From contig JAAOMT010000070.1 in NCBI GenBank assembly GCA_016748015.1, positions 248,001 through 312,000 on the forward strand: DNA of 64,000 nt. Direction: 5' to 3'. Position numbers and translations under genes: made by a program. The notes below the pieces were generated by a model, which saw only the letters and a list, made by a program, of their open reading frames with translations, did no database searches and was not told where the DNA came from. This DNA is from Geosiphon pyriformis uo1. Its lineage: Eukaryota > Fungi > Glomeromycota. Shown in pieces: positions 1-64,000 of the stretch (the first letter of the stretch is position 1; every line of letters starts with the position of its first letter).

Positions 1-3000
1 TCTCAATCCAACATTGATTGTAGAAATCAGATACTGCCAATGCCACCTCCAACACATATGCATCAATAGCTGTTTGACTGTTGAGGTATACAATCAAGAA
101 ACAAGAAGATGGCACACATTCCAGAGACAAAGTGACAGCCTGCAATTCAGCCATAGTAAAAAAGGCAAAGCCATGCACTCCTACATTAATGCTCATGTCT
201 AATGCCAGAAAATATGCCACAGTATCACTAACCACATCATCAGGCCCAGTATTCCTCAATGAACCATCTGAATAAACTTCAAACAAGCCAGACCAAATTT
301 TATGTAAACTATCTTGCACCTTGGCAAACTCATTAGAATTCAGAATGTTCAAACCATCAGCCTGAAGAGACACAGACAGAACCAATGGTGAAAAGCTATT
401 ACTGTACAGAAACCTTGATGTAACATCAAACCAGTAGGGAACAGAGCCTTTGAAATCCAATCTTTTCCACCAATGGAAGGTTTTCCAATCCATAACACAG
501 CCCTTTTTATCAAAGAGCTTATCACTAAAAGCAATTTTAAAACATTTCAAAGACTAAACAAAACTAAGATATAAAGTCTTCTCAAGAATAGAAAACATAA
601 GAAAAACACCAGAACTATGAAAAGCATTAGGCAACTCATTTGCCAATAACAGCTTATTAGCTAAAAAAATCCTAACCACTTTAGCTAAAAAATTGTTTAC
701 AGGACTAAAAAGCAACTTAACTGAGAACTGCAAGGGATTTAGAGGAGCCCACTCCAAAACCTGCAGATCCAAGAATCTATGATGAAACAACCAACCAAGG
801 ATGCCAGAAGCATTGGAGAATGAGACCACAGCAGTTAATTTATTCTCTGATTGCACTTGCTCAAAGGACTTCAGACTATAGAGCAAAAAATGGTGTAAAG
901 CCTCATTAGGGAAATTTCAGGACAAGTGTGTTTTAGACTTGAGGCCCTTTTTAATCATGACATTCCACTTGTTGTACATACTTGATAAGACAAAACTAAA
1001 TTGAGTTTTATAACTAACAATAGGCTGCAAAACAGCTAACATCAAATAGGAAAACTGCTTGTCTATAATAGTCTTTCTAAGCACCACATTTACAAAGAAA
1101 TAAACATCAGCATAAGCCCTAACCAAATTCAGCTTGAAAAGTCTCTCAGTTGACAAAAAAATTCCCAGATATTTGTAAGTCTTGCCCTTTCCAGCCATGG
1201 AAATAGGTTGGCCATTAATACTTAAAGCAGCAAACTTAACACCTTGATTGATTGGAATGATCACTGTCTTCTCATTATTGATGGAAATGTCATTGATCGA
1301 AAAGAATTCACTGGCAATGTTCAGAGCATATTGCATAGAAGCTTAACAATCCTGACCCAAATTGTGTTATTCACAAATGCACCAGCTGCAAAAAATGAAG
1401 ATAAACCACTACTATTCTCAACTCTGCCAGTTTTTGCCACAAATTTAGTATCAATCTAATAACTGCACAAATGCTTATGTCTCTTAACTTTACACAAGAG
1501 AGGATCATAAAAGATTCTCTAAAGAAGGGGGGAGAAAACTTTATCCTGGTCCAATCTATCATGCACTCTATAGCCTTTTGAAAGGCCAAAATCTGTCATA
1601 ACTCTATTGATCCTATCTGTGTGTATGCTACCAAAAAATTTAATAAACCTATTGCATATCTTGATCCTATTTAAACTAGCCTCCAAGTAATGTCAACCAA
1701 CCGAGTCATATGCTTTGTGCATATCTTGCAAGATTAGCCAAAGTTCCCAACTCTTTTCCAATGTGTCTTCTACCACTGAACCAACTGCAAACACAGGAAA
1801 TTGAGTAGACATACTCTTCAAAACCAAAAAATTATCATCTTTAAAAACACCAAATTTATTGCATGCAGACGAAATCCTGTTGGAAATAACTTTGGAAAGA
1901 ATCTTTCTGGTGGTTTCAATTAAAGCAATAGGTTAAGTATTTATAAGAACTTCATTCCAGTCATAAGGTTTTGGAATCATTGAAACCCAAGCCTTTTTCC
2001 ACAAAACAGAAACACCTCTAACCACTAAACATATATTCAATAGTTCCAAAAGGCACTCCAACATTTCCTTACCACAATGTTTTCACAGCTTATTAGGAAT
2101 GCCAGACAAACTAGTGGCTTTATCATCAGACAGATTATTAACAACCAAAAGCAGCTTATTCATATTGATTGAACACATCACACTGAAGAAAGCATCATTT
2201 TTCATGTAATTTAATGACACATATTGGTGGGCTCAAAGATTAGGCATCACTGAGAGCACATTCTGCTTTTTCATCCAACTTTCCATTATTCTATTAATAC
2301 TGAGTTTGATTTTTTCTGGCTCTAAAACCAATTCATTGTCCACCACTAAGTAATTCAGGACTACTTTGCAAAAGGGACAATTCAAGATGCTTCTAATTAT
2401 GCCACCTTTATCAAAACAAAATTTTTCTATCTGCTTTTCTATCATCTTCCTAATAGATGCCTCCTCAGCCAATTTTGATTCAAACATCTTGGATTTTTGA
2501 TATTCTTTCTTAACCAAAGATAAATACTTAAGAACATTCATAGACCTCCTACTATTTTGAACTATTTCCATCACCACGATAGCTTTGTCAGCATCTAAAG
2601 ATGACCACTTCTCAATGAAACAATTATAACCAAGAATATTACCTGTGCTCAAACATTTAACTACTTTAGCAATTAACAGTTCCAATCCCAAAAACTTAGA
2701 TAAATATTTGTTCTTTGAACACTGAAACTTACTGAACCAATGTTTTGCAAAAATTTTATCAGCTGCACCAACCACCACTTTTTCCAAAACTGCTCATATA
2801 GTATCTACATTACCCTAAATTTTGGCATCAGAGAACATGGTCTTTATTACTGAAAGTTTGACAAAAAAGTATTCCTTAAATTTCAACCACTTAGCATCAT
2901 CTGCATTTTTGATCTTGAACTTCCAACAATCTTTATTAGTCTGTTTGTGCAAGCTATTCAAACAAACATCTAATAGCCCACTTAAGCCAACTAAGACCAA

Positions 3001-3679
3001 TACAGCATTGTAGTCAGTGTTAAAAAAACTAGAAACAAAGCAGACCTGATGACCAGTAACAGCAGACAACAAGGTTTTACTGACAAAAATATAATCAATA
3101 GTTTTCTCAGACCCTTGAAAGTTGTACCATGTGGAAGCCTTTACTAGACAATGACCTGCAAATGAATTGACTAAACTCAGATCTGAACAGAACTTGAAGC
3201 TTGCACTTCTCCCAGACCCATTCTCATTAAAGTCTCCACCCAAAACCACAAAAGTGCTGGAGTTGACAGCCTTTGCAATAAGAGAGTTCACAGCTAAAGC
3301 TTGACTAAATCTTGTTTTAGGAAAGACACCAGTATACAGTTCCAGAATTGTAACCAAAAGTTTGTCCTTAAATAAAAGCTGCACTAAAATAACTCAACCA
3401 GAGACCTCTTCAACTTTAGACACATGATGAGCAAGAGAATTGTTTATAATTACAGCCATCTTAGCACCAAAAAACCCCTTATCCAAACCAGTTATAAAAA
3501 CACACACTTTTAAACTTATTGGCTATCTATGATTTGACACTAGACCACAATTTAATTTCCATCATGAAAGACACCATACAACCAGAACTTACATGCCAAT
3601 AGACCACATCATTCTGCTTTGTAGAAACATTAATACCATGAATATTGCATGTAGCAAATTTCCAAACCAAATTATTCAT
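1..3679 (-). pseudogene. LINE-a ORF2 (APE endonuclease-RT-RNase H), disrupted
   Basis: Starts ATG AAT AAT TTG GTT TGG AAA at 3679. Many stops and frameshifts; motifs as above. Confidence 0.88.
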
Positions 3680-5324
3680 TAAGATAGAGGGGGAGCTAAT
3701 AAACTCAAATTAGAACACAAAGAGTTCAATCTTACTAAAACTAAACTGACTAAAATATCCAGAACCATTATTTTTAATTCCAGACCATCCATCTTGGTGG
3801 TAAAAACCTTCAAACTACTCAAACTGAATTCAGGAGCAATATTTTTGACCACCAGAGAGGAAATAGAAGAAGACACCATCACATTATCCACAGCCATGTC
3901 TGAATTCAAAGCTAAATTCAAGGGAACAGCAACAACAAGAGGGGAAACACAAGATATAGATAACATTGGCACCAATTCCACAAAACTTAGTTTCTTCAAA
4001 ATTACAGAAACTTGATCTGATAAAAGCTCTAAGAAGTACTCCAAAGAAGCCAAGCGATCAGTCAAACAAGAATCACCAAGAGAATTAGAAGCCATTAAAA
4101 AGAGTTTTACACCCAGAAATGAACCAGCACTAGATAAAACTAATAATACCCCATGAGAAGAAAAGCCACCTGCAATCTGAGCCCAAGTTTTTTCACCAAA
4201 AAACACTGGATAGACAATAGAAGTCTGTTTCCTTTTATAAATATCAACTAGACAAATCTGATCTTAAAAAGACACCACTCACTTATGACAAACTCCAGAA
4301 TTCTCACCAACTGAATACATATTAGAAATATGACCAAATTGTTTACACTTGGCACAACAAGCCAAAAAAAGACCAGTTCAGTACAAATTTACACTTTTAT
4401 AAATTAAAACAGAACCAATAACAGCCAATTTGGATGCTTCATTAGCAAAACACATTATTGCACATCTATCACATACATATGAGCTGGAATTATGGCCAAT
4501 GAAGCAAGTTTTTTTACCATATAATTCTATCAAACCAGAAAGATCATGTCCTATAGTTCTAACTGGAAGAGTATAAAGCAAAGCCCAATGCTGATCTCTG
4601 AATACTCATATTTGTTTATTACCAATGGCTTTTGCCACACAAACAGAATTTTTTTCCAAGAAAACAGACCATTTAGCTGTGACCAAATTAGCTATCTCAA
4701 ATGATTCATACTCCACCAAAGCTTTTTGTCACAAACCAATCAATTGTATCTTGATTGATACAATCTTCTTAAACTTAGAAAAAACAGATTTCACAGTTGA
4801 TTTGAGAAGATCAATTGAGATTTTCTTGACAATCACTTTCCAATCTGATTGGCTGTTAATCTTTCTAAGATTATCATTAACAAGAATTTTTTCACAGACT
4901 GCCAATTCCTTTGCCTTATTCAGACTAAATTCAGATGTAAATAACAACTTAATAATTTCAAAAATTTTTGAAGAAGTGGAAATCCCCCCAAAACCATCAA
5001 TTCAATAAAAAATTTTCTTGATTGCAATTAACTTATCACTATTTGTTTTTCCAGACACAGCAGACAATTCAACATCCAAAATGAACAATTTAATTGGTTC
5101 GAAGCTATGTTTCTTTAGGACATGTAATTTGGCAGACAGAAGCTAATTGGATCCAACAAATTTAGGTGCCAAGAGCACCAACTCAGTATTATTATTATTC
5201 ATATGTTTGAATAAAAACTGCTTTGGTGGGTTGCTCAGCACATACATCCACATGCAAGTTTTTTTCAGTATTGTTTTATCCATATTATCATTCTCACCTG
5301 ATTCTGCATAACTGGTTTCTTTGG
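3676..5324 (-). pseudogene. LINE-a ORF1 (RRM-like + CCHC knuckle + coiled coil), C-terminal part
   Basis: ORF fragments 3679-4206, 4378-4581, 4729-4947 and 5143-5337 match ORF1 of LINE-d (40933-42399). Confidence 0.85.
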
Positions 5325-6297
5325 TGTTACCAGACAAAATTAGAGATATTATTTAGCATAAAATTATCTTATAATTCCTATCATTAATTAACATCGTTTC
5401 AAATTATTACTTATTACATTAGCAAAAATGTCCAAAATTATTATTTAATTAATAACCCAAATTGTACACAACACAAATGTAACCTAATTGCGATGATCAA
5501 TCATGCAATACCCTGAACTATGTAACATTCAAAAGTTTGCCGAAATTTATAGAAATTCACCAAAATAATTGATAGTTTACCGAAATATCTAATAATTCAC
5601 AGAAATAACTTGTAGTTTGCTGAAATGTATCTTTAGTTTAGTGAAATTGTAGAAAATAGCAAAGTTCAAGTTCATAGAATAGTGTTATGACAAGTTGTAT
5701 AAAAGAAGAGCTTCTCTCTTTGAGAAATGTATCTTACTTTAGATTTAACAATTAGAATCATCCTTTACACACAAAAACGAAATAAATATCAAATAATTCG
5801 AAAAATCAAATCCTGAATTATTTCACTTTTGAAATTAACTAATTCCTACTAAACAGTTTGAAATTGATTAGCTACCAATTTCAGTAAACTGTTAGTGACT
5901 CCAGGCCTGGATAGAAAACATTTCCTTTGACAGAAATTCTATTTCTTTTACATTTCTTTTATTTTTCTTTTATTTTCTTATTACAATCATTAGGGTAGTC
6001 TACAGACAAGATTCCTGTAAAAGAGTTGACTTTCACAGCAAAGTAACTACACATTTTTAGTGAGCTTCCAGATGAGCAATTCCTGGGAAAGAGTTGACAT
6101 TTACTACAATGTAACTACATAAAAGCAACTGGCAAGGAATTGACCATTCCATTCATAAGTCCAGCAGCTCAAATTATAGGAGATAATTTGAGAATAAATT
6201 CAGTTATTGAAGGTTTAAACACTTCTCATAATCGTAAATTAACAGCATTACAATAAACATACAAGAGCTAAGAAGAGACCAAAAACCTCCAGTAACA
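5325..6297 (+). repeat. LTR-A 5' LTR (973 bp)
   Basis: TGTTACC...GTAACA; near-identical to 14207-15180. Internal AGTTYGCCGAAAT-like repeats at ~5531-5650 and a TATAAAA box at ~5698. Confidence 0.96.
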
Positions 6298-6299
6298 TT

Positions 6300-6315
6300 T
6301 GGTGCTCTTCCACGG
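6300..6315 (+). promoter_or_regulatory. Primer binding site (TGGTGCTCTTCCACGG)
   Basis: TGG begins 2 nt after the LTR-terminal CA. The same TT-TGGTGCTC follows the 5' LTRs at 16816 and 50723. Cognate tRNA not determined (it would end ...GAGCA-CCA). Confidence 0.85.
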
Positions 6316-6342
6316 AAACAACACAGCAAAAACAACTTCAAA

Positions 6343-8379
6343 GTGGCGACCACACCAGACACAACAACTCTAGAGTATTACCAATTAATTTACACCCACT
6401 GCAAGCAAAGATTCAACATTCCAGACGGAATTAAAATTGTCAAGAAATCAGTATACCAATACATTGAAAACTGCATCAACAATTATTTTTTTGGAAATTA
6501 CAATATCTCAGAAGTTAGAAGCAACCTTTACAATAATTTAGCATACTATTCACAGTTGGGAACTGAAGACCTTAACAGTGAAACACTTGCCACTTACTTT
6601 CATGAACTTAATTTTAACATTTTCAAATACTGTGAAGAAACATATCCAGTGCAGTCTCAATACACTATTGATTTTGAATTGGAAACAGAAACAAGCAACA
6701 AAGGCAAAAACAAATTGAAGCAATACTTAAAAACCACCCCAAATACTCCAACACTACCAAAAACAACTGCCAATTATTTACAAACACCTGAACAAGGAAC
6801 CAGTTCAAAACTTCCACTTACTATCACACCTTTTCCAGCTTCACTTGCACAAACACAAACACCTAATTTACCCTTGAATCAATTTGCAAGACCAGAAGAT
6901 TTTACATTACTCAGAAGTTCCACCAGACAACAAGAACTCCTTCAAACTAGCTCCAATCTCCTTGATTTTCTAGCTGAAAATCAAAGTGAACACTCTGAGA
7001 CAGCAGCAAACGAAGAAAACAACTCTGAAATAACTGAAGAAGAATCAATAGACAGTGAAAACGAAGAAGATGAAATGACAACATACATCACAAAAATCCC
7101 TAAATTCAATGGAGAAGATATTGAGACCAGTCCCCAAGAATGGCTTGACCAAGTTACTAAAGCTGGAGATGCAAATGGATGGAATTCTGCCAGAATGTTA
7201 AGAACAATTCCCTATTTTCTCAAAGGAACAGCAGGAGAATGGTTTAAAAACTTGGCTGCTCCATTCAATGATTAGAACGCTTTCAAAGCAGCCTTCCTTG
7301 AACAGTTTACCGACAATAATACCTCTATCACCCTTCATAATCATTTTCGAAATATCAAACAAGAACCCTCCAAATCTGTTATGACTTATATTGGGAAATT
7401 CAACAAACTTCTTAGACAAATTCACCAACTTGAAACAAACAATTATTATTTCAATGCTCAAATCTTGGATCAATTTATCACTGGTCTAAAAGATAAACTA
7501 ATTAAAAAGGTTTACCCACATGCACCAGAAGATTTAAACTCTGCCATACAGCATGCGAAAAGATATGAAATGGCCATGGAAGAGACCAATTGCACAAAAT
7601 TTGTAAATTTGGCAATTGGAAAAACCAGCTCAGCAGCTGAGGAAAAAATTAACCAACTTACAAAGAAGGTTGAAAACTATTTCACCAATCAACAACAACA
7701 GCAACCCCAAAGATATCAACCACTCCAAAGACAAAATCAAAATAATTTTGCACCACTTTCCAATAACCAGCCTCAAAATTGCCATTACTGTGGAATCTCT
7801 GGCCACTGGAAAAGAGATTGCAGAAAGCTACAATGAGACCAACAAAATAGGAGTAATTAACATTACCCTCCACCACAGCAATCTTATTATCAACCACTAC
7901 CATCAGCTTACTATCCACCAAAACTCCAATACCAAAATAACTATTATCAGCCTGCCCCACAGCCAATCCAACAGCAATACCAGCAACCGCTCACACAACA
8001 TTATCAAGTACCTGCTCGAAGACTGCTTACACAGAATCAATTCACACCACAAAATTGATACCAAGTAAACAACAATAGAATCAGTTCGAATAACCAATTG
8101 GTTCCTCAAAATTCTACTCAACCAAGACCCAACCACTACTACACTCAACCCAGTTATTTAACAATGCCAGAAGAACAGAATTTTCATCATACTGCACCCT
8201 CGGAAGGTAGAGCTGCAGCATAACAACAAAACCCTTCCTATACTCTTACCACAATCCCACCAGCCAGAATTGCTGAAAATGCCAACCTTTCAGATATATT
8301 TCCTTTTGAGTTCGAAGCAAATGAGTTATCATCCCTGCTTAGCAATGCAGCTGCCAATGAACAAAAAGCAATCACGGCT
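6343..8379 (+). pseudogene. gag: LTR-A gag (long N-terminal extension, capsid-like domain, CCHC knuckle, Q/P-rich tail)
   Basis: IPKFNGED...EWLDQV...LKGTAGEWF; CHYCGISGHWKRDC knuckle. In-frame stops only. Confidence 0.9.
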
Positions 8380-8760
8380 ATGTACACTGAAGCAGAAGTC
8401 AAAGGAAAGACAATTCGCTTGATCCTAGACAGTGGATCCACTGGAAGCATTATCACCTACCAGTTAATACAACAGTTGAAGAGAAATGTCGACCAACCAG
8501 CTCAAACAGTAATCGTCACTGTTGATGGCATGAAAAAGACCCCAGTAGGAGAAATTGACAATTTTCCATTCACTTTTGATGGAATCACCATTCCAGTCAA
8601 AGTTCTTGTAATGGATGCACCTCAGTACCAAGCTCTCGTTGGAAATGATTGGCTTCAAAAAGCCAATGCTAATCTGAATTGGGAAACACAAGAGTTAACA
8701 ATCTCCTACCAAGAACAACACGCCCAGGTATCTGCCACTTGTAATACATTCAACAAACAC
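8380..8760 (+). pseudogene. LTR-A aspartic protease domain
   Basis: LILDSGSTGSII and ALVGNDWL retropepsin motifs. Confidence 0.92.
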
Positions 8761-8929
8761 TCTGAAAAAGCCCCAGCTTTTGAATTCGAACCAGAAAAGG
8801 AAAAACCTCTCATTGAAACATTCATGGCTCTTGGATCAATGTTCAACTGGGCCGATGAAACAGAACAAGAACATTTTACCCCACACTCTGAACCCGAAAT
8901 CTCTAGATGGAATATCCCTTACTCAAAAC

Positions 8930-9575
8930 CTGAACTAAGAAAACAATGCCCTTATATTCCCCTTAAATGTAAGAACTGCCACAAGAAACTATTGTCAATG
9001 GGAGCCTGCATTTCACCTGAAGAAGAATATGAAAATCATACTTGTTATTACTGCAAGGCTTGCCACAGAGAACAATGGGGCCATCTAATAAAAAGGAGTG
9101 GAAAATGGGACAACACCCCTTGTTTGACTTGTGGAGATATGCTACTGGAAGAATGCAATTGGATTGATGTAGCCATAAGAGAAGGAGTCTGTGATCAGAC
9201 CTGCCAATATGCTTTATCAATTTCAGAAAAAGTAAAAAGAGGAACATCCTTTAATGCAGCATACAACAGTGCTCTCAACAAACTTTATCACTACCTCCAT
9301 GATGCTGAGATGATTTTCGACCTAGCAATGGCATTAATTAATAGAGCTACCAAAGAAGATGTTCACCAAATGAAGGAAGCAGAATACATTGAATACACCA
9401 TGAAATTAGCTGGATTTGATTACGAAGACAAAGTAGAAGTCTACCACCAAATTGCAAGTCATACCTACCCAACTCAAGAAGCTCAAATTCAATGATTAGA
9501 GCAAATGAACATTAGGCTATGTGAAAAATGCATTATGCCTTGCAATGAACAGTGGTGTCCTGAATGCTATGCTCT
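8930..9575 (+). other. Cysteine-rich (multi-CxxC) module within pol, function unknown
   Basis: CKNC, CYYCKAC, CLTC, CDQTC, CEKCIMPC, CPEC. A homologous block lies in LTR-C at ~53760-54390. Confidence 0.75.
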
Positions 9576-9689
9576 TAGTATTTTCTTGCCCAGTGAAAAT
9601 GATGAAAACAAAATTGAATTTGGAGAACTTAAAGCAATGGAAGAAATTGAAACAATATCTATCTACCTTATCAAAAATCAGCCTGCCTT

Positions 9690-10122
9690 ACAACTTAAAT
9701 ACTTCAACAACAATGGACAAGGAATAAAACCCGAAAAAGCACATAAAATTGATGCTAAATATGACCTAAAATATCCAGGCAAGGATACTCTTGTTCTCAA
9801 ACCCAAATCTCTCACAAAAATCAATCTTAAAATTGCACTCGAAATCCTACCAGGAGCAATGGTTCAAATTATCTTCCAGTCCTCTCTGGCAAGCAAAGGA
9901 ATCAATGTCAAAGGAGGAATAATTGATGCTGGATATACTGGAGACATTACAGTGATGCTTCAAAATGAAACTGACAAACCATTCAAGATCGAACATGCTG
10001 AAAAAATTGTCCAAGCTATTTATCTACTCTTAATCAACATTTCAGGTTTGCAACTAGTCAATCAAAGAGAACAATTAGGAAAAAGTGATAGAGGAACCCA
10101 AAGTTTTGGTTCAACTGGACGA
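9690..10122 (+). pseudogene. LTR-A dUTPase domain
   Basis: All five trimeric dUTPase motifs, some mutated: DAKYDL, QSSLASKG, GIIDAGYTGDI, IVQAI, RGTQSFGSTG. Confidence 0.92.
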
Positions 10123-10549
10123 TTCACAGTTCCAGTTAACATAACTTTTAACACACAGAACAAATCCCACCAGATTCTCAGACTTCTACAACCGATTACC
10201 ATCTCACCCTTTGGAGAACATCCAGAAATCTACACCTGCCCAAAGCCAACAACCACACAACAAAATTTTGAGTTCAATGAACAAGTCTGCTTGGAACATA
10301 ATATTTTGATCCCAAACATTTATATTCCAGAAGGAACAAAGAAAATACAAGTTACTTTTTACAACCCCAATAATTACCCCATAATTTTATTAAATAATTT
10401 AGAAATTGGAGTTATTTACAGTAATATATTTCAACAAGAATTACCCCAAACAGTTCCCAATTTCTCTGAAATTATTGGACATTCACTACCAAAAATCAAC
10501 CCAAACCCCAGCTCCGAAAACTACCATGTTGTCATGGAAAAACTATCTC

Positions 10550-11961
10550 AAATCAACATGGGACAACTTGAACCACAACAACAGACCCAACTCAAAAAGC
10601 TAATTGCAGAATTTGCCGATATCTTCGCTGAAAACAACAATGACTTAGGAAAAACCAATTTGGTCCAACACCAAATTTATACAGAAGATGCCAAACCAAG
10701 AAGACAACAAGCATATCGAGTTGCTCCAGAAAGCCACCAATTCATCCGAGAAAAAGTACAATGAATGCTTAACAATGGGCTCATTCAACCCTCCATGAGT
10801 CCTTGGACTTCATCTGTAGTGCTAGTTAAAAAAAAAAATGGAAAGATCCGATTTTGTGTTGATTATTGACAACTCAACAGTATTACAATTAGAGATGCCT
10901 ACCCCCTTCCCTGGATTGATAACATGTTAGATGCCCTTGGAAAATCCAAATACTTTTCAACACTAGATTTAGAAAGTGATTACTGGCAAGTTGCTATGAA
11001 TCCCAAAGATCGCCCCAAAACAGCATTTACCACCCAAGACGGAAATTATGAGTTCAATGTAATGCCTTTTGGATTATGTAATGCACCAGCAACATTTCAG
11101 AGATTAATGGATGTTGTGTACCAAGGACTTCTTTGGAAATCAGTAGTTGTTTATCTTGATGATACTGATGTTTATTTTCTATCATTCGAATTACACTTAA
11201 AACACCTGCAAGAAGTTTTTCAATGATTATGAAAAGCAGGACTAAAACTCAATATCAAAAAATGCTATTTTGAAAAAACAAGCCTGGCCTTCCTTGGTCA
11301 TATTGTTAGTAAAGATGGAATTAAACCAGATCCTGGAAAAATCAGCGTTGTCAAAAACTTCAAAACTCTTCGAAACACTACAGAACTAAGAGAATTCATA
11401 GGATTAGCATCCTACTATTGGAAGTTTATCAAAGGATTTTCGGAAATTGCAAAACCCTTCAACCAGCTTACCACCAAAAACGTTGAATACAAATGGACTA
11501 CCGAACACCAAAAAGCTTTTGAAATTCTCAAGGAAAAACTGACAACAGCTCCAATTCTCATCTACCCGGATTTCAGCAACCAATTTCGACTAGCTACAGA
11601 TGCTTCATATACTGCCTTTGGTGTTATCTTATCACAACTAGACAACAATGGAAATGAGTGAATAATTGCTTATGCTAGCAAAACATTAAAACCAGCTGAA
11701 AAAAACTATCCTGCCACAGAACTAGAAACAGCAGCCATAATTTGGGCCCTACACTACTTCAATCTTTATCTTAGGCCTAAAGAATTCAATATTATCACTG
11801 ATAATATTGGATTCAAATGGCTTCAGAACAAAAATACTCAGCTGAATGCAAAACAAACCCGATGGACAGAATTTCTAGCAAACTATTAATACATAGTATA
11901 TCACAAACCAGGAAAACTCTACACCAATATTGACTGTCTCTTCAGAATAAGACAAGATTAG
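10550..11961 (+). pseudogene. pol: LTR-A reverse transcriptase and RNase H
   Basis: RFCVDY*QLN, FSTLDL, MPFGLCNAPATFQR, VYLDD, FLGHIV, TDAS, ELET, HKPGK..N.DCL.R. Ends at TAG 11959-11961. Confidence 0.95.
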
Positions 11962-12012
11962 AAAAAACAAAAACCAACACTCAACTTAACCAACCAAAAG
12001 AGCTAACAAACA

Positions 12013-13398
12013 ATGAATTTGGAAAACTACAATGATCTCAAACAATATTTGGAAACATTAACAATCCCAACAGATTGGTCTCCAGATAAAAAACATTGAC
12101 TACAACAACAAGCCAAACAATATTTTCTACACAACAACATTATTTATTACCAAAATTTCAAAAACCCAGACAAACCACTTAGATTAATACAAAAACAGGA
12201 AAAAGAGACTATATTATACAACATGCACTCAGATCCTTCATCAGCCCACTTTGGAAAAGACAGCACCACCCAAAAAACACTAGAATACTACTTTTGGTCT
12301 CGAATAAGAAAAGACATTCACGAATATGTCGAATCTTGTGATAGTTGTCAAAGAAGAGGAGGAACTTGCCCTACAGAACTTTTAAACCCAATCAAAGTTG
12401 GACAGCCTTTTGACAAAGTTGGTATTGATTTAGTCGGACCACTACCTATCACAAACCAAGGAAACCGCTACATTGCAGTAGCCATAGACTATCTCACCAA
12501 ATGGCCTGAAGCCAGAGCCATTCAACGGGCAGATGCAAAATTAGTAGCAAACTTCATCTACGAAGACATCATTTATAGACATGAATGCCCAATAGAACTT
12601 TTATCTAATCAAGGAACACATTTCATGAACAATTTAATCCAGGAAATTTGTGGACAATTTAATGTCAAGAGACTATTATCTTCACCCTACCATCCACAAA
12701 CAAATAGACTGGTAGAACAGTTTAACAGAACATTGTGTGAATCATTAGCCAAAGTTTCAACCGATTTTGAGCAAGAATGGAATCTCTTTATTCCATCAGT
12801 GTTACTAGCATATAGGACACTAAAACAAGATACCACAAAACACACACCATTTGATTTAACTTATGGAAGGATGGCAATGTTACCAATTAGTTTCACAGTG
12901 GAAACATACCCAGCACAACCAATTGATGAAAACAATTTTCAAGAAATGCTTCAACAAAGAGCCTACACTCTGCTTAGCACATTGGAAGGAAAATGATGAA
13001 TAGCAGCCACCCATATTGAACACTCCCAAGCTCAACAAAAAGAATGGCATGATGACAAATTGTCTTCAGTCACCAATGAATTTAAAATTGGAAACAAAGT
13101 TCTCTTACACAGAACTAAAGCTGAAAAACAATGGAGTGGAAAATTTGAAAATAAATGGAATAGACCATTCTTTATCCATGAAGTTTTAGGCAACGGATCA
13201 TATAAGCTAAGACTTGATGACAAAATTCTAGCAAAAGTTGCACATGGAAATTGTTTGAAACACTATAATTCCAGAAACAATCTTGAACCATTAATTCCAC
13301 AAATTGGTACATATTCCCCTTTAATCAATCCCGAAGACATTCCCCAAAATTTAAAACTAATAGTTGTCATTGAACAGCCTCACAACTTGAACACTTAA
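12013..13398 (+). pseudogene. LTR-A integrase (HHCC, DDE core, GPF-type C-terminus, no chromodomain)
   Basis: MHSD..AHFG...CDSCQ; VGIDLVGPLP, SNQGTHF, PYHPQTNRLVEQFN; KWNRPF. Own ATG at 12013. Confidence 0.93.
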
Positions 13399-13518
13399 TT
13401 TAAATTTATTATTATAGTTATCTTCTTATAATTTAGAAACAATCTCACAAAAACAAAACAAAATAACATAAAAACTCATGCACCAAAAATAATTTTCTTT
13501 TATTTCAAATCGCTTATA

Positions 13519-14195
13519 ATGACTATTCCTCAAAACATTCAACAATTATTCCAAAAACTAATGTTAGCTTTAAAAACAATACCCGAATTATTCATTACTG
13601 TTACTGGAAACCACATTAATTATACCCAAACAGAAGTAGTTACAAATTTAGCTCCAAATTCACGAAAATATTACCCATATAAGAAGAACACAAGAAGTTA
13701 TACTGGAATTTACCTGCCAGAACTTTTAAAACTTACTTTAAGAGAAAATCTAATGTTCACTCTGATTAATATTCCACCAAATACTACAATTCAACAAAGA
13801 CTTCAACTGTGTCTCAATGAGGAAAACACTGAATATCCTCCAATCTATAGATATTTTCACATTGGAAAAACACTCTACAAACGGAAACTGGAACTTACAA
13901 CAGCAAATCTTGCAAAAGAAGCTATTCAGAAACAACTCCACAATGAATTCAAGACAACAGCTGGATCAACAAACAGTTGCTACAGGCTCAGAACTGCTCT
14001 TAGACTTTATGACCTATTTCACACCTGTGAAAACATACTACAAAACCCAATTTTTCAACCTTTGAAGATTTAATACATTGGAAAGCTCACAGAACTGAAA
14101 TTTCAACAATTTTCAGACCAAATTTCTTCAATAATTTTGGATTATTATCTGGAAATAACAAACAGTACTTGGACTTCAATGGAGCTCAGTCTTAA
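13519..14195 (+). pseudogene. LTR-A ORF3, unknown function
   Basis: 184 aa open, then one TAA at 14071; continues to the PPT (the frame would stop at 14238 inside the LTR). Motifs are shared with ORF3 of LTR-C and LTR-F. Confidence 0.8.
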
Positions 14196-14203
14196 GGAGG
14201 AGG
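14194..14203 (+). promoter_or_regulatory. Polypurine tract AAGGAGGAGG
   Basis: Purine run 3 nt upstream of the 3' LTR. Confidence 0.85.
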
Positions 14204-14206
14204 TTA

Positions 14207-15180
14207 TGTTACCAGATGAAATTAGAGATATTATTTAGCATAAAATTATCTTATAATTCCTATCATTAATTAGCATCGTTTCAAATTATTACTTATTACA
14301 TTAGCAAAAATGTCTGAAATTATCATTTAATTAATAACCCAAATTGTACACAACACAAATGTAACCTAATTGTGATGATCAATCATGCAATACCCTGAAC
14401 TATGTAACATTCAAAAGTTTGCCGAAATTTATAGAAATTCACCGAAATAATTGATAGTTCACCGAAATATCTAATAGTTTGCAGAAATAACTTGTAGTTT
14501 GCCGAAATGTATCTTTAGTTCAGTAAAATTGTAGAAAATAACAAAGTTCAAATTCATAGAATAGTGTTATAACAAGTTGTATAAAAGAAGAGCTTCTCTC
14601 TTTGAGAAAATGTATCTTATTTTAGATTTAACAATTAGAATCATCCTTTACACACAAAAACGAAATAAATATCAAATAATTCGAAAAATCAAATCCTAAA
14701 TTATTTCACTTTTGAAATTAACTAATTTCTACTAAACAGTTTGAAATTGATTAGCTATCAATTTCAGTAAACTGTTAGTGACTCCAGGCCTGGATAGAAA
14801 ACGTTTCCCTTGACAGAAATTCTATTTCTTTTACATTTCTTTTATTTTTCTTTTATTTTCTTATTACAATCATTAGGGTAGCCTACAGACAAGATTCCTG
14901 TAGAAGAGTTGACTTTTACAGCAAAGTAACTACACATTTTTAATGAGCTTCCAGATGAGCAATTCCTGGGAAAGAGTTGACGTTTACTACAACGTAATTA
15001 CATTAAAGCAACTGGCAAGGAATTGGCCATTCCACTCATAAGCCCAGCAGTTCAAATTATAGGAGATAATTTGAGAATAAATTCAGTTATTGGAGGTTCA
15101 AACACTTCCCATAATCGTAAATTAACAGCATTACAAAAAACATACAAGAGCTAAGAAGAGACCAAAAACCTCTGATAACA
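14207..15180 (+). repeat. LTR-A 3' LTR (974 bp)
   Basis: Direct repeat of 5325-6297. Confidence 0.96.
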
Positions 15181-19544: not shown

Positions 19545-22500
19545 TTTTTTATTTTATTTTATTTAAAGAATAAGATCCATATATTACTTAGTACAATATA
19601 TTATATAAGTAATTTAAATTAGGTGTAAATCATGTTTTTTCTATATATAAACAGTCATTTAGGCTGACCAAAACAATGCTATGCACTTATATAATTCAAA
19701 ACTGAGTCTTTAATGTCTAAAAAAACAAACAAGACTTATATAAGCCAAAATTAATACCAAATGCCTTAATAATATCAAACAATCTAATTTTATTAGCAGA
19801 AAATACTGTAAACTGTCCAAAAACAGAAACAAAAACTGAATTATCATGAAGAATTAGCCCATTTTTTTCATAAAAACATGATGCTTAGCACAAACCAACC
19901 AAATTTCTTTCTTAAAAGCAAGACAAAAATTACACACAAAATTCATGATTTTCAGATTCACAACTTTGAAATCACTAAAAACAAAAACAGTTTTCTGACA
20001 CCAATCATTAAAGACAAAGCTCTTGCAAAAAACTGTATACACTACAGCATTAGAGATACAAAAGAACATTAGTTGAGACATATATAAAGAGGAACAAAAA
20101 AGACCAAAAATCACTTTTCAAGTATCTGTATAAGCATTTAACAAATAATAACAAACAGAATTGTCAATTATACAAAAAAAAATATGGTTTGAGATCTTAA
20201 CATTATCACAATACAAATATGTCATATTAAAGTAGTACTTGTCATATAGGCATTTTTTAATAGCAATAAGTAATTAATAATATAAAGTTTTTATAAAATA
20301 AGTGTAAATATTAACAATAAGTCTACTAATAAAATCAGCAGCCATATGCAAATCAGAATGCTACACCAAAGATAAACTAAACCAATTAATATTCGAGAAC
20401 AAACAATTAGCCAGAACCTTAGAATCAGAACTGATTTACCAGCATACATGATAAATAAATCAAAAAATCTTACAAACAAAATATATAAAATTACCAGAAA
20501 CAATACTACTATCAGCCTTAATATAATGTTTTCTTAATTGGAAAAAAAGACACCAATTAGAAAAAAATACAATGTTAGTAAATGTATTAGCACATTTATT
20601 ATCTAAAACATCTGAGTAACTATTCACTTTGTGCCAATTAATATTCAAATTCTTGTCATGAATAACATCTATAATGTGCTATCATTCAATTTAACACCAA
20701 TTCTAAAAATCTGGATACATCAAACTTAACTCAAATTTACATATATCCAAAGCCACTTGACTGTTTGTAAATAATTAAATTGAGCCATAAAGAAAATACA
20801 CTTAAGAGTCAATACAATAGTCTGCAATTTTACTAATATAAAAAACATCAAACCAAAAATCTCAATACTTAGACCCAAATTCACATCTTCAAAAAAAACC
20901 ACAACATCAGCCTTCATGTGAATTGTTTCCAAGTTTTTTAGAGACTCATTTGTATAAACAGACATGCTACCAATATTAATATCTAATAAACAACTACAAA
21001 CCAACTCAAATTCACTCAATTTAAGAATATTAAAAAGTCTAACATTGCCCAAAAAAGGAGAGCAGATAAAAAAAGAGACCATATTACTAAAAAAGTTAAT
21101 AAAAGGCTTAAACCATTCAGAAATAAAGCCACAAGAGTCTAATTTTTTCCATTGCTTAAAAATTTACTAATTAAAAATAAATTCATTTTGACAACAAAGT
21201 TGGTCCATAAAAGCAATATTATATTATCAAAGTAAAGAGAAAAACTTAAAGAACTTAGATTCATTAAGAACAATTAACATAAAAGTTCCACTCCCAAAAT
21301 AAAAAGAATTGTTTATAAAACTACCTAAGGACAAATTGTACTTAAGAAAAATACAAATCACATTTGCCAAAAAATTATTAAAAGGACTGATTCTAATATA
21401 AGTTAAAGAGCACAAAAGATGAATTAGACTCTAATACAGAATTTGCAAATCATGAGATTTGTGAGAAAACAAACAATTCAAAATTCTAATAAAGTTTGCA
21501 AAATTTACAAGAAAGGCCAATTTGCTCTTAATTTAGACCTGCTTAAAAGTTTTCAGACCATACAAAGAAAGGTAATAAAGTGTATTATTAGAAAAATTAA
21601 AAAGCAAACCAGATTTTAACTTTAAGCTTTTGTGAATCAAAGCATTTTACTTATTATATACACTAATAAGAACAAAGCTGAATTGCATTCTGTAGCTAAC
21701 AATAGATAAAAAACAGCTAACACCAAATACAAAAACTGTTTATTAGAGATAATTTTTTTCAGAACAAGATTGGCAAAAAACCAGATATTTGTATGTGCTT
21801 TAGCCAAACTAGATTTTGATAAATTCTTAGTTGATAGAAAGATACTCAGGTAACAATGAAATTCTTTTTTTTTAATAATAGAAATAAATAAGTCACTAAT
21901 TAACAAAGAAAAGCTTCCAACTCTGCAATTGATAGAAATGATCACTATCTTGTCATTTTTAATAAAAATGTTATTAATCTGAAAGAATTCATTTGTAATA
22001 TTAAGAATATATTGGGTAGTATTTTGATTGCAACCAATCCAGATAGTGTTATTAACAAAAGCACTAATAGTGAGAAAAGATGTCAATTCAGTCCAAGATT
22101 TTACACAATCAGTTTTGGCAACAAAATAAAAATTCAATTTATATTCACACACATTTTTCTGTCTTTTGATTTCACACAAAAGAAGATTATAAAATATACA
22201 CCAAAAAAAAGACAAGAACACTTTCTCCTAATCCAAACTATCATGTATTTGATATTTACCTGTTAATTCAAAATCAGTCATCACTTTGTTAACACAATTA
22301 TTGTAAATATTACCAAAAAATCAAATAAACCTGTTATATATCTTTATTTTAACCAAGTTTTTTTCAAGATGCTCCCAACTAACAGAATTGTAAGCTTTTT
22401 ACATGTTCTGCAAAACCAGCCAGAGTTCATGGTTTTTTTTCAAAGTGTTCTCAATTATTGAACCAACAGCAAAAATAGGAGACTATATTATTGTACCCTT

Positions 22501-23650
22501 CAAAACTGAAAAATTATCTCTGCAGAAGATGTCAAAAACACTATATAACAAAAAAATTCTGTTAAAAAGAATTTTACATACAGTTTCAATTAAAGCAATA
22601 GAGTGAGTATTCATAAAAACTTCATCTTACTTATATAATTTGGAAATCATTGAAACCTAAGCCTTTCTCCAAGATTTGAACATTGATTCACAAGATAAAT
22701 AAGAGTTTAAAAGCATCAAGAGTATATTCAAAACTGATTTGTCACAATGTTTCCAAAACTTATTTGAGATATCAGAAAAACCAACAGCTTTGTTATCAAG
22801 TAGATCAAAAATCACATTGAATATTTCATCAAAAATAACCAGACACATTACATTAAAAAAAGCATCATTAAAAACATATTTTAAAGACTGATATTGTCAA
22901 GACTATTTATTAGAAATATTAATAATCACTTTATATTTCTTAGTCCAACTCTTCATAATTTTGTCTACATTGGCTTTAACCAAATCAGATTCTAAGATCA
23001 GTTTATTATTAATAACTAAATAATCTAAAACCACTTTGCAAAATAAATGTTTCAATACATTTCTAATAGTATAACTCTTGTTTACTTCAAAATTTTCTAT
23101 CCTTTTATCAATCATCTTAAAAAAATAACTCAACACATATGTTCAAGTATGAATTTTTCTAGATGTGGTATTGTTTATATTCTTATTTATTAAAGCATTC
23201 AATTTGGCATAATTGGTTTTCTTAGTAACTATATCTTTCATGTTTTCAACATCCAACAGACTACTGATACTGCTTGCAACACTACTAACTTTGTTTCTCC
23301 AAAATTTTGAAGGTTTAACACTAAAGCCACCAATATTTAACATGCTTATAGCATTAACAGATGACTTGACTACACTATTAGTAGCAGCAGATTTCTTTGG
23401 CTTCTTGTATAATGCACTGCAAGATTGAAAACCAACCAAATGCTTATTCTTAATGCTAAACTAGGTCTTTAATCTAGCTGAGCCAATACCAAAACCACCA
23501 GCAAAAAAACTCATCAATTCTATAGCAACAAATAAAGATATATTGGAAGAAATAACTAAAATAGATAATAGAGAAAAAAAAGAGGAAAAATTATTTTTTC
23601 AGCTACTCTGTGCTCTCATTGTAACTAGAGGATCAATAAAAGAAAGAGTT
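19545..23650 (-). mobile_element. LINE-b: degenerate LINE with a large internal deletion
   Basis: RT (SAFVNNTIW), RNase H (VYTNES, WHKV) and C-terminal fragments; ORF1 N-terminus 23143-23520 joined directly to the ORF2 linker at ~23120; 5' motif at 23612-23646; 3' UTR and (TAAA)-like tail at 19545-19690. Confidence 0.88.
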
Positions 23651-24498: not shown

Positions 24499-26005
24499 AT
24501 GGAAAACAAAGAAATTAAAAGAACAACTCGTCCATACGCTCATGATTGCAATGAGTGTCACTGGTGTCAACAGTATATTAAAAATAATTCGTCTAATAAT
24601 TGTAGTCCATGCCAGTTCATGTTTTTCAAAAAACATTATAAAGACTTTTCAAGTGGCAATGAAGAAGTTGATAAAATAATTAAGAATCCAATCTATATTC
24701 CACCTAATCATTCTGGTAATTGGGATAGTGAATTGAATTACTATGAATGGATTCCATGGGAACGTTTGTTGTATATCAACGAAATTGCTAGAGGAGGGTT
24801 TGGTATAATTTATAAAGCAACCTTAATTGATGGATTAATTGATGTAGAAAGTATAAAACATGATGGTTCAATGGAATATGAAAGACATAAGAAAGGGATA
24901 GAAGTAGCAATAAAAATTATAAAAACGAACAGTTCAGAAGTGTTTAAAGAGGTAAGCAAACTATTTATATTTATATATATTAATTTAATTCACATTTACC
25001 TATTATTTATTTACTATATATATTATCTATTTACTTAATCTTTTTTTACACTGTGTTTTGATAGTTATATATTCAAAGAGCTATGTTTAGTTATAATGGA
25101 TATGAAAGTTCTTCTGTCTCTAAAATATTGGGGATTACGCGAAACGCTGAAACACTCGAGTATGGAATTGTGATAGAGTTTGCCGAACATGGAGATATGC
25201 GAAAATATTTATCAAAAAATTTTCATTCTACGAGTTGGGATAATTAAATACGTATCGCATGTTATATAGCTTGGGGACTTTCAGAAATTCATCTGGTATG
25301 GTTCATCGTGACCTACATTCGGGCAACATCCTACAATTAAATGAAAACTGGGTAAATATTGGAGACCTAGGATTATGTCAACCTACAAACCATGAAGCAA
25401 CAACAACAACAATAACAATAGAGGAAAAAAAGATATTTGGAGTGATTCCATATATTCCACCAGAAGTTTTAAGAGGAGAAAAGTTTACAACAGCTGGTGA
25501 TATTTATAGTTATGGAATGTTATTATGGGAATTATCAACAGGAAAACCTCCTTTTCATGATTGTCCTCATGACGAAATCCTTATAATGGCTATTTTAAAT
25601 GGTCAAAGACCTAATATTACCTCCCCACTTATTCCACCTTCTATCCGTAAACTCATTAAAAAGTGTTGGGATGCTAATCCTAAGAATCGTCCTACTGCCA
25701 TAGAACTTAAAGATAAGTTTACGGAACTTAACTATTTGTATCATGATAATAGGTTTAAAAGATGGATACACTTTGGGAAATCAAATATCCTAACAAAAAT
25801 AGCAAAAAATGACTCGACAACAACAAAGATAGCAATTCATCCAGAAGCAGTTTATACAAGTCGTCTTTTAACTGCTCAAATGGTCAATTTTTCAACAGGT
25901 TTGTTTATTTAATTTATAAAATGATTCATTTTATTTGCTTTAATTACATATTTTAACTTTCTTTTTAAAGAATTAGTCTATTTACCAGAGAGTAAAAAAA
26001 GGTGA
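24499..26005 (+). pseudogene. Tyrosine-kinase-like protein kinase, probable pseudogene; exons 24499-24951, 25065-25898, 25971-26005
   Basis: IARGGFGIIYKA, VAIK, HRDLHSGNIL, IGDLG, YIPPEVL, DIYSYG, CWD.NP.NRP. GT-AG introns 24952-25064 and 25899-25970. In-frame TAA at 25245-25247 and a frameshift at ~25290. Confidence 0.85.
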
Positions 26006-36092: not shown

Positions 36093-36247
36093 TATAAGTT
36101 CTTATAGTTTATTTTTATTTATTTATTTATTTTAACAAGTAAGATCCAAACACAACCTAGTGCCTTACATCATACAAATGATCTAAACTAGAAGCAAATT
36201 ATGCGTTTTCTACATGTGACCAGCCACTCAGGCCAGTTAGAACTACA

Positions 36248-56700: not shown

Positions 56701-56878
56701 TCAAAAGTTTGATGTGTACACTGATTACAAAGGATTGACTTCAATCCAGAAACAAGAATTTGGAGACAATTGCTATGCCAGATAGAAAATAGAACTTTCA
56801 CTATTTAATTATACAATACATTACAAAAAAAAAAAAAATGGAAATACCAATGGTTTGTCAAAAATGAAACAGATCTAA
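50740..56878 (+). pseudogene. LTR-C gag-PR-Cys-rich-dUTPase-RT-RNase H, heavily disrupted
   Basis: PIAKLEKFT gag start, LILDS protease (~53170), NAGFDLRYP/RSSL/IIDTGYIGNI dUTPase (54620-55050), MPFGL, VYLDN, IDASG. Confidence 0.9.
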
Positions 56879-58313: not shown

Positions 58314-58949
58314 ATGGTATATGTGACAAAAGACAGCAGAAAAATGGAGATTACTGACAACATCAACTCACTAGCACAACAACTCTTTTAACTGATCCAA
58401 CAACAAGAGATGAAAATTACAATCAACCAACAAACTATTAGATATACAAACACCAGAAAGAAACCATAAGATAAAGTACAGAGAAAAACAGAAAACACTG
58501 TTGACAAAATAATTACCAAGGTAAAATTAGCAATAAAAACATCACCAAAAGTCACCCAATATTAAGAGTTAATTATAGAAACTTGGAATTGGTAGATACA
58601 ACAATTTCCAAAAAACTTTTATTACTTTTACTTAGGATAACACCTAAACATTCAAAGTTTGTACACAGATAAAACAAAACAATTATTTAACACAACAGTA
58701 CTATAATAACTAGAACAATTTGTGAAAAAAAACAATTTAACCACACAAGCAAAAGCCATTTATTGGCTGCATACTGGATTTTAAGATCAGCCAGAAATTT
58801 TACTCAATACAGCAATAAACTCTATTACTGTTAATCAAATGGAAAAAATAACCAATGTCCAATTTAAAAAATTACAGAACAAGATAACACAAGTAATTCT
58901 CAAAGATAAAGAATTAGAATTAGAAAATCTTGACGGAGTTTAATATTAA
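58314..58949 (+). pseudogene. LTR-C ORF3 (212 codons, internal stops)
   Basis: ATG at 58314 is in frame with TAA at 58947 adjoining the PPT. Colinear with 62718-63377. Confidence 0.78.
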
Positions 58950-58963
58950 AAAAGAGGAAATAA

Positions 58964-61833: not shown

Positions 61834-64000
61834 TGTTACAGGTGATTATTTCTGGTGTTGGATTAAGTAACAAACCCATAACTTGGTGCTCAAATCTAGT
61901 TGCAGTTGATAGTAATCTGAAGGTTTGTGTCTGAAGGGTTTGTATCCGAAGAGTTTGGTTAAGTTCTTTGTATAATGGACAGAGATTCAATGGTAATAGT
62001 TTTATCCATAGCTTTCTAAAACTGCAGTTTTGTTAATTTCTTTCTCAGCTTGATGGCTGGTATTTCTTCTGGTAAACTATCTTCAATCAAGTATTTTACC
62101 CTTATTTTTGGGTCTTTTACCAGTCACGTTTATCCTGACATCAGTATTTTGCACGTTAATCCTCAATAGAGTTAGTAAACAACCATAAAATCAAAGCAAG
62201 AAATAAAGAAAAAAAAAGAAAATAAAGAAAAAAAAAAAATAAGCCAAGGTGATTTGCAAGTTGGTATTCCATTAATAGCCATAATCAAGAGCTATTGTTC
62301 CAGTATGGTTAAGTATCAATTACTATCAACATGAAGTGTTGATAGTGATAGCGGGTTTAAGATAACAAACAGTTATTTATTTGTGGTTTGGAAAGTTGTC
62401 TAAATAAAATCTAAACTGAGAGATCTGTCTTTTCAGCTTCTAATCCTACTGCTATATATACATAATTAAGATTCCTCAATTCCTCAATTCTTCACAACAA
62501 GAATCCTGGAATTCCTGGAATCCTGCAATTTTTTTGAAAGAAATCCTGAAATTCTGAAATCCTGCAATTCTTTGTAAAAATCTTGTAATTCCTGGAATCC
62601 TGCAATTCCTGAAAGGAATCCTGGAATTTCACATTTTACTACGTCTACTTCTGATTGGCTAATAACTATGCTAATATATATTCCCTATATTTCTATGAGT
62701 AACATTATTCCCTCTTTTTAATATTGAGCTCTGTCAAAATCTAACTTTGTTAATTTCCTTTCTTGAAGTATTTCCTGAATTTCATTTTCGAGAATTACTT
62801 GTGTTATTTGAGTCTGTAATTTTTCAAATTAAGCATTGGTGATCTTTTCTAATTGATTACTGGTAACCATATCTATTGCTTTGTTGAGTAAGATTTCTGG
62901 TTGATCCTGAAATGCTGTGTGTATTTGGTATATGGCTTAGGCCTGTGTAGATAAGTTGTTCTTTCTTACAAAATGTTCTAATTGTTGTAGTATTCTTGTG
63001 TCAAATAATTGCTTTGTTTTATCCGTATATAGATTCTGGATATTTATGTGTTATCCCAAGTAAAAATAACAATAGTTTCTTGGAAATTGTTGTATTCACC
63101 AATTCCAAGTTTCTTTAGTCAACTCTTGGTATAGTGACTTTTTTGTCAACTCTTTTATTGCTAATTTTACTTTCACAATGATTTTGTCAACGGTATTTTT
63201 TGTTTTTTTTTGTGTTCTATATGGTAATGTCTTTCTAGTGTCTTAATATCGAATAGTTTATTGATTAATTGTAATTTCCATCTCTTGGTGTTGAATCAAT
63301 TGAAAGAGTTGTTGTGCTAGTGAGTGGATGTTGTCTGTAATTTCCATTTTTCTAATATTTCTTGTTGTATTTACCATGTCTTTATATATTCTTTTTATAG
63401 ATTAATTTAATGTGTTGTTGTCAATGATGATAATTGGTTCCAGATCTTGTGGAATTTTCTTTGGTTGGACTAGTATCCTCTGTACTTCTAATTGTGAAAT
63501 ATTACTGGTGGATAGTAGTGTGATATTGTGGTATGGTTTCAGTCGATTTCTATGTGCTGCTTTGGTTAAAATTTTGTTATCCAGTCTTAATTTGTAAGCT
63601 CTATTTCCTAGAATTTTTTCTATGTAAAATGGTCTATTCCATTTGGGGTCAAATTTTCCACTCCATTGTTTTTCTGCTTTGGTACGATGTAAGAGTACTT
63701 TGTCTCCAATTTTGAATTCAACTGGTTTGTCTGGTAGTTAATTATTATGTCTTTCTTTCTGTTTCTCTTGTGACTTTTGTATGTTATCAGCTGCTCTTCT
63801 TCATTTGTTTTCCAATATTTCTATTAAGTCATATGTTCTTCTTAATAATGTTTCTTGGAAATTTTCTTCTGTTATTGGTTCAGTTGGATATGTGTTAACC
63901 TCTATCTCAACTGGTAATATTGTTGTTCTACCATATATCAATTCAAATGGTGTTGCTTGTATGGTGTCTTGCTTTATTGTTCGATAAGCAAATAATACTG
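61834..64000 (-). mobile_element. LTR-F: 3' end of an LTR-C-family element (integrase C-terminus ~63400-64000, ORF3 62718-63377, PPT 62708-62719, 3' LTR 61834-62704)
   Basis: The minus strand reads AAAAAGAGGGAATAA-TGTTACTCATAG...TGTAACA. Integrase end FKIGDKVL...KWNRPF. Runs off the window end. Confidence 0.93.

Follow-up and report, generated by a model that had tools for sequence, protein, structure and literature searches.

A conserved third open reading frame without env features in dUTPase-bearing Ty3/gypsy retrotransposons of Geosiphon pyriformis

Fungal LTR retrotransposons are generally depicted as gag plus pol. We analysed a 64,000-nucleotide stretch of the Geosiphon pyriformis uo1 genome (contig JAAOMT010000070.1 of assembly GCA_016748015.1, positions 248,001 to 312,000 of the forward strand; hereafter the window), in which an earlier note made from the letters alone had reported an additional open reading frame (ORF3) in the env position of three elements. 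All three ORFs are indeed present at that position, and the motifs quoted for them are all found in the window. The question is whether ORF3 is a genuine gene of these elements, whether it is an env and what its product may do.

The element that carries the best preserved copy in the window, element A, is a dead Ty3/gypsy LTR retrotransposon with a dUTPase. The structural marks of Ty3/gypsy are all present (TG...CA LTRs, a target-site duplication, a PBS-like site and a PPT), and Pfam recovers the order gag-PR-RT-RH-IN with the dUTPase between PR and RT. The gag region contains Retrotrans_gag and a CCHC knuckle, and a PBS-like sequence, TGGTGCTC, lies immediately 3' of the 5' LTR. Self-comparison of the window showed 95.5% identity between the LTRs of element A and 85.4% between those of element C (~49852-50720 and ~58964-59842), the two elements being flanked by 4-bp target duplications of TTGG and ACAT, respectively. 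Element C encodes gag-PR-dUTPase-RT-RH-IN in an order identical to that of element A; a third, related element (D) lies on the minus strand and is truncated at the window end. The coordinates are collected in Table 1.

Table 1 Features of the ORF3-bearing elements. Positions refer to the window unless the metagenome contig L002 is named.
Feature	Position	Strand	Remarks
5' LTR, element A	5325..~6296	+	TG...CA termini
gag-protease-Cys-rich region-dUTPase-RT-RNase H, element A	6238..11961	+	single frame with nonsense stops; start is a stop-to-stop boundary, no ATG mapped
RNase H stop to integrase ATG	11959-12015; 56876-56911; L002 772-801		
integrase, element A	12013..13398	+	H2C2, rve, SH3; own in-frame ATG
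IN-ORF3 spacer, element A	13399..13518	+	T-rich, then A-rich
ORF3, element A	13519..14238	+	239 codons; PPT read through; last 32 nt within 3' LTR
PPT, element A	14195..14206	+	direct from sequence; overlapped by ORF3 tail
3' LTR, element A	14207..~15180	+	TTGG directly after
ORF3, element C (decayed)	58344..58953 (end approximate)	+	upstream of LTR ~58964-59842
ORF3, element D (decayed)	62718..63347	-	C-like lineage; stops just short of PPT

Several other features of the window were recorded. Within element A, a Cys-rich interval with several CxxC pairs between the protease and the dUTPase (8830-9492) had no Pfam match above noise, and a long N-terminal extension ahead of the gag capsid domain, with an acidic stretch at its end (6238-7095), had no Pfam match. 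Differences between paired LTRs are nearly all transitions (41 of 43 in A, 114 of 118 in C) and fall in every cytosine context rather than specifically in CpA. The CpG observed/expected ratio in the elements is 0.25; transition-biased decay together with low CpG suggests host cytosine methylation rather than classical RIP. A second retroelement family (429-3819, 19546-23112, 28803-33336, 36112-42850 and 45023-48417) carries RRM-like, RT and RNase H regions; its copies are ~65-68% alike, no LTR was seen and it is probably non-LTR. A protein kinase fragment at 25244-25912 (PK_Tyr_Ser-Thr, E 1e-27) probably belongs to a host gene, and 33368-35101 is a low-complexity region of ~12% GC with inverted self-similarity.

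The limits of ORF3 differ in part from those first proposed, which placed it between IN and the PPT with ~210-230 codons and ATG starts at 13519, 58314 and 63377. ORF3 does follow IN on the same strand, but in element A it runs past the PPT to position 14238. The start at 13519 stands, whereas the homologous starts of C and D are at 58344 and 63347, since the alignment of A-type and C-type ORF3 begins at residue 1 and stops shortly before the C-terminus; the ATGs at 58314 and 63377 are in frame and lie 10 codons further 5'. In a profile search of the six window frames three strong matches of 201-257 bits were obtained, at 13519-14199 (+), 58344-58910 (+) and 63347-62757 (-), and the next-best match scored only 1.1 bits. 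As this profile was made from relatives of the window copies, it demonstrates their number and location and not independent homology. Homology between the two types was established directly: hhalign aligned A with C/D ORF3 at E 1.5e-6 over 183 columns (26% identity) and blastp gave E 2e-7, which disposes of the concern that the ORF3s of the two lineages would not align significantly.

None of the window copies is intact. ORF3 of element A is interrupted by a single TAA at codon 185 (14071-14073), which is private to this copy because 98% of the summed A-family contig depth (356,216 of 363,028, from a DNA run that may itself be the source of the window) has a cytosine at 14071. The copies of C and D contain nine and six internal stops, respectively, with no frameshift across the matched part. 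At the 3' end, a DNA motif adjoining the PPT on its 5' side (14181-14206; 62700-62735) is kept between lineages that translate it differently: A and L002 read it in one frame, and C and D in another that ends at a stop. Its conservation despite the change of frame indicates that it is probably a cis element, and the ORF3 tail is thus not a protein feature. The overlap of ORF3 with the LTR looks like a by-product of this motif.

To determine whether the frame has been under selection, we compared C with D, a single pair of dead copies, over 195 codons and obtained dN/dS values of 0.21 (95% bootstrap 0.13-0.34), 0.33 (0.22-0.48) and 0.41 (0.26-0.59) at transition weights of 1, 3 and 6, respectively. 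When all six frames were compared, the true frame was lowest (0.18/0.31, against 0.37-1.50/0.57-2.18 in the others). The integrase control gave 0.31/0.48 and the LTRs 0.63-0.87/0.98-1.31, so that ORF3 is at or below the integrase in this comparison. Because C and D both decayed after insertion, dN/dS is probably lower still in active lineages. A value near 1, which would have spoken against a maintained protein, was therefore not seen.

Relatives of ORF3 are numerous in the genome of this fungus. Searching with the A protein gave 167 relatives among 257 candidates; among the 120 listed, 119 are G. pyriformis hypothetical proteins and one is the window's own. All 107 relatives of the D protein (from 232 candidates) are likewise Geosiphon pyriformis hypothetical proteins. 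An ORF3 profile found 121 matches among 1.84 billion representatives, of which ten were looked up (five Geosiphon, five metagenomic), and a wider profile found 40 among 2419 candidates, 34 of them from Geosiphon. The matched G. pyriformis hypothetical proteins look like copies of the same retrotransposon gene. A link to the element is also visible in the gene models: of 352 family proteins, 37 carry part of an integrase N-terminal to ORF3, and only one has such a piece behind it. Intact natural copies also exist (P0264, P0265 and many 239-aa proteins).

The alignment and tree resolved two A subfamilies and a well supported clade uniting C/D with three more Geosiphon sub-lineages; four metagenomic lineages were weakly placed in this tree, which used 16 of 31 rows and in which long branches were flagged. 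ORF3 is kept in at least seven diverged sub-lineages, at least five of them beyond those of A and C/D. Together with purifying selection in C vs D, these homologues bear out the proposal that the protein is maintained across lineages. Scanning 593 metagenome stretches for ORF3 context, in 31 of the 64 parts of the collection, yielded at least two loci: L002, with RT-RH-IN, a spacer, an intact 230-aa ORF3, the PPT and the start of an LTR, and L001, with the end of IN followed by ORF3. The L002 ORF3 matches A (E 6e-18) and not C/D, and its pol is likewise nearer A, which suggests that ORF3 and pol may have diverged together, a point on which global identities and the tree give no resolution. Identity between lineages is ~28-37% for ORF3 vs 46-61% for RT-RH and IN. 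In a viral contig collection, searches with ORF3, IN and the PPT motif found nothing related, and the single phage tblastn match to ORF3 (E 0.4, on a non-coding strand) is a chance match. The earlier note also proposed a resemblance to an abundant hypothetical family of arbuscular mycorrhizal fungi. The one lead for this is the top match in a part-search of the ESM Atlas, a 127-aa cluster of 63 members whose commonest phylum is Mucoromycota (score 0.93). Every named match is from G. pyriformis.

Two further observations concern the neighbourhood of ORF3. The extreme C-terminus of the integrase carries a motif common to A, C, D and L001 (P-x-D/E-I-P-x-x-L-E/K-P-I-I/V-I/V-I; window 13290-13398, window 58190-58283, L001 30-135), a candidate targeting or interaction tail. 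In L001 a 128-codon ORF lies between IN and ORF3 (425-811), with a TATA box ~110 nt 5' and no Pfam or window match; it may represent another accessory gene.

In A, C, D and L002, ORF3 lies on the gag-pol strand between pol and the 3' LTR, and it is therefore a sense additional ORF (aORF-3S). How it is expressed was approached through the spacers. TATAWAWR occurs in four of the five IN-ORF3 spacers (C, D, L002 and L001), located ~40 nt before the homologous ATG in C and D, ~125 nt before it in L002 and ~110 nt before the intervening ORF in L001. In element C the sequence TATATAAA lies ~40 nt 5' of the ORF3 ATG (58344); the spacer of element A has only a degenerate TATA-like TATAATTT ~95 nt before the ATG. 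In a shuffle test the spacer TATA was above chance in C alone (P 0.03; P 0.28-0.35 in the others). By eye, no conserved splice acceptor was found before ORF3 in C, D and L002. Read-through from IN into ORF3 was considered as a general rule and rejected, the L002 spacer being 316 nt long and 82% of the A-family depth having a 1-nt spacer insertion.

Integrase itself has an unusual arrangement. In A, C and L002 an in-frame stop closes RNase H and is followed by a CA-rich spacer and an integrase ATG, the spacers being 51, 30 and 24 nt long, respectively, and all three in frame (a 1 in 27 chance). The A-family TAG at 11959-11961 is fixed, with every other letter below 8% of the depth; a neighbouring private TAA is a cytosine in all of the depth. 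As the spacers are in frame, integrase could be made in these three lineages either by read-through or by separate initiation. Either route would be unusual for Ty3/gypsy, and a search of titles and abstracts found no RNase H/integrase stop of this kind.

The protein predicted from ORF3 lacks the hydrophobic segments of an env. In all 11 family members tested, Kyte-Doolittle means over 19 residues peak at 0.27-1.29, below the usual transmembrane threshold of ~1.6, and by hydropathy alone the first 35 residues contain no signal-like stretch (highest 11-residue value of 1.25 or less). These profiles agree with the proposed lack of a signal peptide and of a long hydrophobic transmembrane (TM) segment. 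An AlphaFold model from a 31-sequence alignment with the intact P0265 first reached pLDDT 83 and pTM 0.66, with the core mostly above 90, and with the hydropathy it favours, as a prediction, the soluble helical non-env protein first suggested. It comprises a small alpha/beta N-domain (~residues 11-42, made up of helix 11-24 and a beta hairpin), a linker, helix 60-72 and an all-helical core (~85-210) with helices at 88-96, 105-122, 129-144, 149-163, 167-171, 180-185 and 188-223. An earlier model from a shallow A-only alignment had reached pLDDT 46 and its fold search was uninformative (best Z 6.6); a homodimer prediction, run without an alignment, scored 0.02, which speaks neither for nor against a dimer.

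Comparison of 12 lineage representatives showed polar conservation at R/K54, N148 (11 of 12), R158 (11 of 12), K/R185 and S/T187, alongside an aromatic Y-x-Y-F-x-I-G helix, G145, L159, F163 and G184. No Asp, Glu, His or Cys is conserved among these 12, which argues against an enzyme and would fit contacts to a nucleic-acid backbone. The proteins have few cysteines, and their pI is 8.8-9.8 in the tested Geosiphon members vs 5.1-6.9 in four metagenomic ones.

Searches for known families gave no clear match to an env or any other characterised protein in Pfam, PDB or BFVD; such a match would have overturned the original reading. The best Foldseek E values for the confident model were 0.25 in PDB and 0.027 in BFVD, against a threshold of 0.001; the VIA fold search with the whole model gave best Z values of 4.4 (a designed protein) and 4.6, both at background level; a PDB sequence search returned nothing under E 0.2; and no ORF3 match in Pfam, PHROGs or NCBIfam reached a curated cut-off. 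Below these levels, some leads point to helix-turn-helix (HTH) domains. Three ParB/KorB DNA-binding domains (1vz0, 6s6h and 1r71) were in the top 50 of 48,161 chains, their scores being at background level (Z 3.9, rmsd 4.5 and 91 aligned residues for the best of the three; Z 3.4, 3.0 and 59, and Z 3.3, 5.8 and 96 for the others). Profile homology was not found by hhalign between ORF3 and 26 ParB domains (E 0.32); in the same test DUF1016_N and ParB proved mutually related (E 1.5e-4). DUF1016_N itself matched residues 109-173 in Pfam at E 0.12, one of 31 members tested scored 12.9 bits against it (cut-off 32.8 bits), a DUF1016 cluster scored 0.85 in ESM, and hhalign against our own DUF1016_N alignment was borderline (E 0.012-0.028). 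The DUF1016_N score of 18 fell within 7-column block shuffles (maximum 19), and that of 20.7 lay above single-column shuffles (maximum 14.4). A small phage family, phrog_23683, was matched by 10 of 31 members (best E 1.4e-4), and the unrelated FtsQ scored about the same (E 4.6e-4, 9 of 31). DUF3102 was rejected (hhalign E 0.13 vs ORF3 with a shallow alignment; its link to ParB failed too).

Like ParB/KorB (PF17762) and DUF1016_N (PF17761; YhcG N-terminal), the ORF3 model has a helical core with a helix-Gly-turn-helix, and two of its helices, one with Y/W-x-I-G and one with N...R-x-[FY]-x-x-F, can be aligned to DUF1016_N. Unlike them, it has an additional N-domain of alpha/beta type as well as a long helix at the C-terminus, and the similarity is not significant. 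With no single match significant, the HTH reading of the core remains a weak lead.

Taken together, ORF3 is almost certainly a real, selected, non-env accessory gene. As to its role, we tentatively favour a soluble accessory regulator that would bind the element's own DNA and regulate transcription, at a probability of about 0.4. On this model the core helix-Gly-turn-helix (129-144, G145, 149-163), with Asn148 and Arg158, would contact nucleic acid; ORF3 would have its own transcript from a TATA-type promoter within the IN-ORF3 spacer; and the protein would act in trans on the LTR or an internal promoter, giving more expression or less host silencing. The mode of action might resemble that of foamy-virus Tas or VANC, by analogy and not by family membership. 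In favour of this reading count the conserved polar residues, the HTH leads, the spacer TATA boxes and the methylation-like decay of the elements; against it count the lack of any significant HTH match, TATA boxes that exceed chance in C alone and a charge that is not basic throughout the family. A more specific version is unlikely: that these are three-gene (gag-pol, integrase, ORF3) 'complex' retrotransposons whose ORF3 is an HTH derived from a prokaryotic or phage ParB/DUF1016-like domain, recruited as a transactivator or anti-silencing factor with an internal promoter. If true, this would make ORF3 the fungal equivalent of foamy-virus Tas and might go some way towards explaining the Geosiphon LTR expansion.

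The conserved N/R/K residues would suit RNA as well as DNA, and an RNA-binding post-transcriptional factor, acting in Rev/CERV-like export or in control of translation or readthrough, is a possible if doubtful alternative. To express three separate frames from a single genome, the element would need unusual control, given the RNase H stop and the integrase's own ATG; CERV of Cer1 offers a precedent (PMC10309623), and the clusters returned by the ESM part-search included one of closterovirus coat protein (0.93) and others of phage translation repressors (0.91). The ESM matches, however, share fewer than 170 features and are leads only, and this alternative sits uneasily with the lack of a conserved splice acceptor by eye upstream of ORF3 in C, D and L002. 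It is somewhat unlikely that ORF3 is instead a protein adaptor, a partner of IN or Gag in chromatin tethering of the integration complex or in particle assembly. The integrase has no chromodomain match yet keeps its short C-terminal motif in A, C, D and L001, and the weak fold lists for the helical-bundle core include TPR-like and other scaffold proteins; but those fold scores are at background (best Z 4.6) and gene order is the sole link between ORF3 and IN.

It is distinctly unlikely that ORF3 acts on the host by binding host proteins rather than element nucleic acid, for example to suppress RNA silencing or to inhibit a methylation protein. Host-facing accessory proteins are often fast-evolving, and ORF3 does diverge faster than pol (~28-37% vs 46-61% identity) in elements that are transition-hypermutated; yet C vs D shows no sign of positive selection and there is no homology to a known suppressor. 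Many host contacts are predicted for TE accessory proteins (PMC13547354), which is also compatible with such an effector. That ORF3 derives from an env now degenerate, or was taken up from the host and does nothing for the element, is very improbable. For it speak the env position and a core resembled by a short Mucoromycota ESM cluster, so that an origin from the host or another mobile element is possible; the frame, however, is under selection and kept in at least seven diverged sub-lineages, and in all 11 members tested the protein, helical in the model and poor in cysteines, is free of TM-level segments. An env identity is largely refuted.

The favoured reading, a soluble regulator, has several known systems to be set beside it. 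'Env-like' aORF-3S are known from Ty3/gypsy elements such as Athila and Bagy2, some with TM domains and that of Bagy2 spliced (PMC7264820). ORF3 shares their position, orientation, presence across copies and lineages and lack of an assigned function; it differs in being fungal, in having no TM-level segment and in showing no detected sequence similarity to them. The dUTPase-bearing LTR retrotransposons of bdelloids are also retrovirus-like with a third ORF other than env, which encodes recognisable enzymes (a GDSL esterase, a DEDDy exonuclease) or fusion proteins (PMC5408684). The fungal ORF3, in contrast, has neither conserved catalytic residues nor a Pfam match. CERV of C. elegans Cer1, an accessory regulator made from a spliced mRNA (PMC10309623), and VANC, transposon-encoded anti-silencing proteins (PMC13547354), could serve by analogy as functional models for ORF3, although they come from other hosts and element types and share no demonstrated homology with ORF3.

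Retroviral accessory genes offer a further comparison: Tas of foamy viruses has an internal promoter, and MMTV sag and HIV nef overlap the 3' LTR. ORF3 is likewise 3' of pol and may have its own promoter, and the A/L002 type overlaps the PPT and U3. No sequence or fold similarity to these genes was found, and the LTR overlap of ORF3 is only ~10 codons and absent in the C/D type. The ORF3 family is not described in the open papers searched, though TE libraries in supplements (e.g. PMC11952901) may include the elements. We conclude that ORF3 represents a new protein family within a known category, the sense additional ORFs of LTR retrotransposons.

This finding adds an undescribed family, predicted to have two domains, present in seven or more sub-lineages and not confined to one genome, together with a fixed stop that parts integrase from pol. 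Several hundred G. pyriformis 'hypothetical proteins' are thereby accounted for as transposon genes. Since intact natural copies are available, the function of ORF3 is directly testable. LTR elements are reported to make up 41.2% of the Geosiphon genome (PMC11952901), and if ORF3 regulates its element or counters silencing, it would provide a handle on LTR expansion in a heavily mutated, TE-rich genome of the mycorrhizal type.
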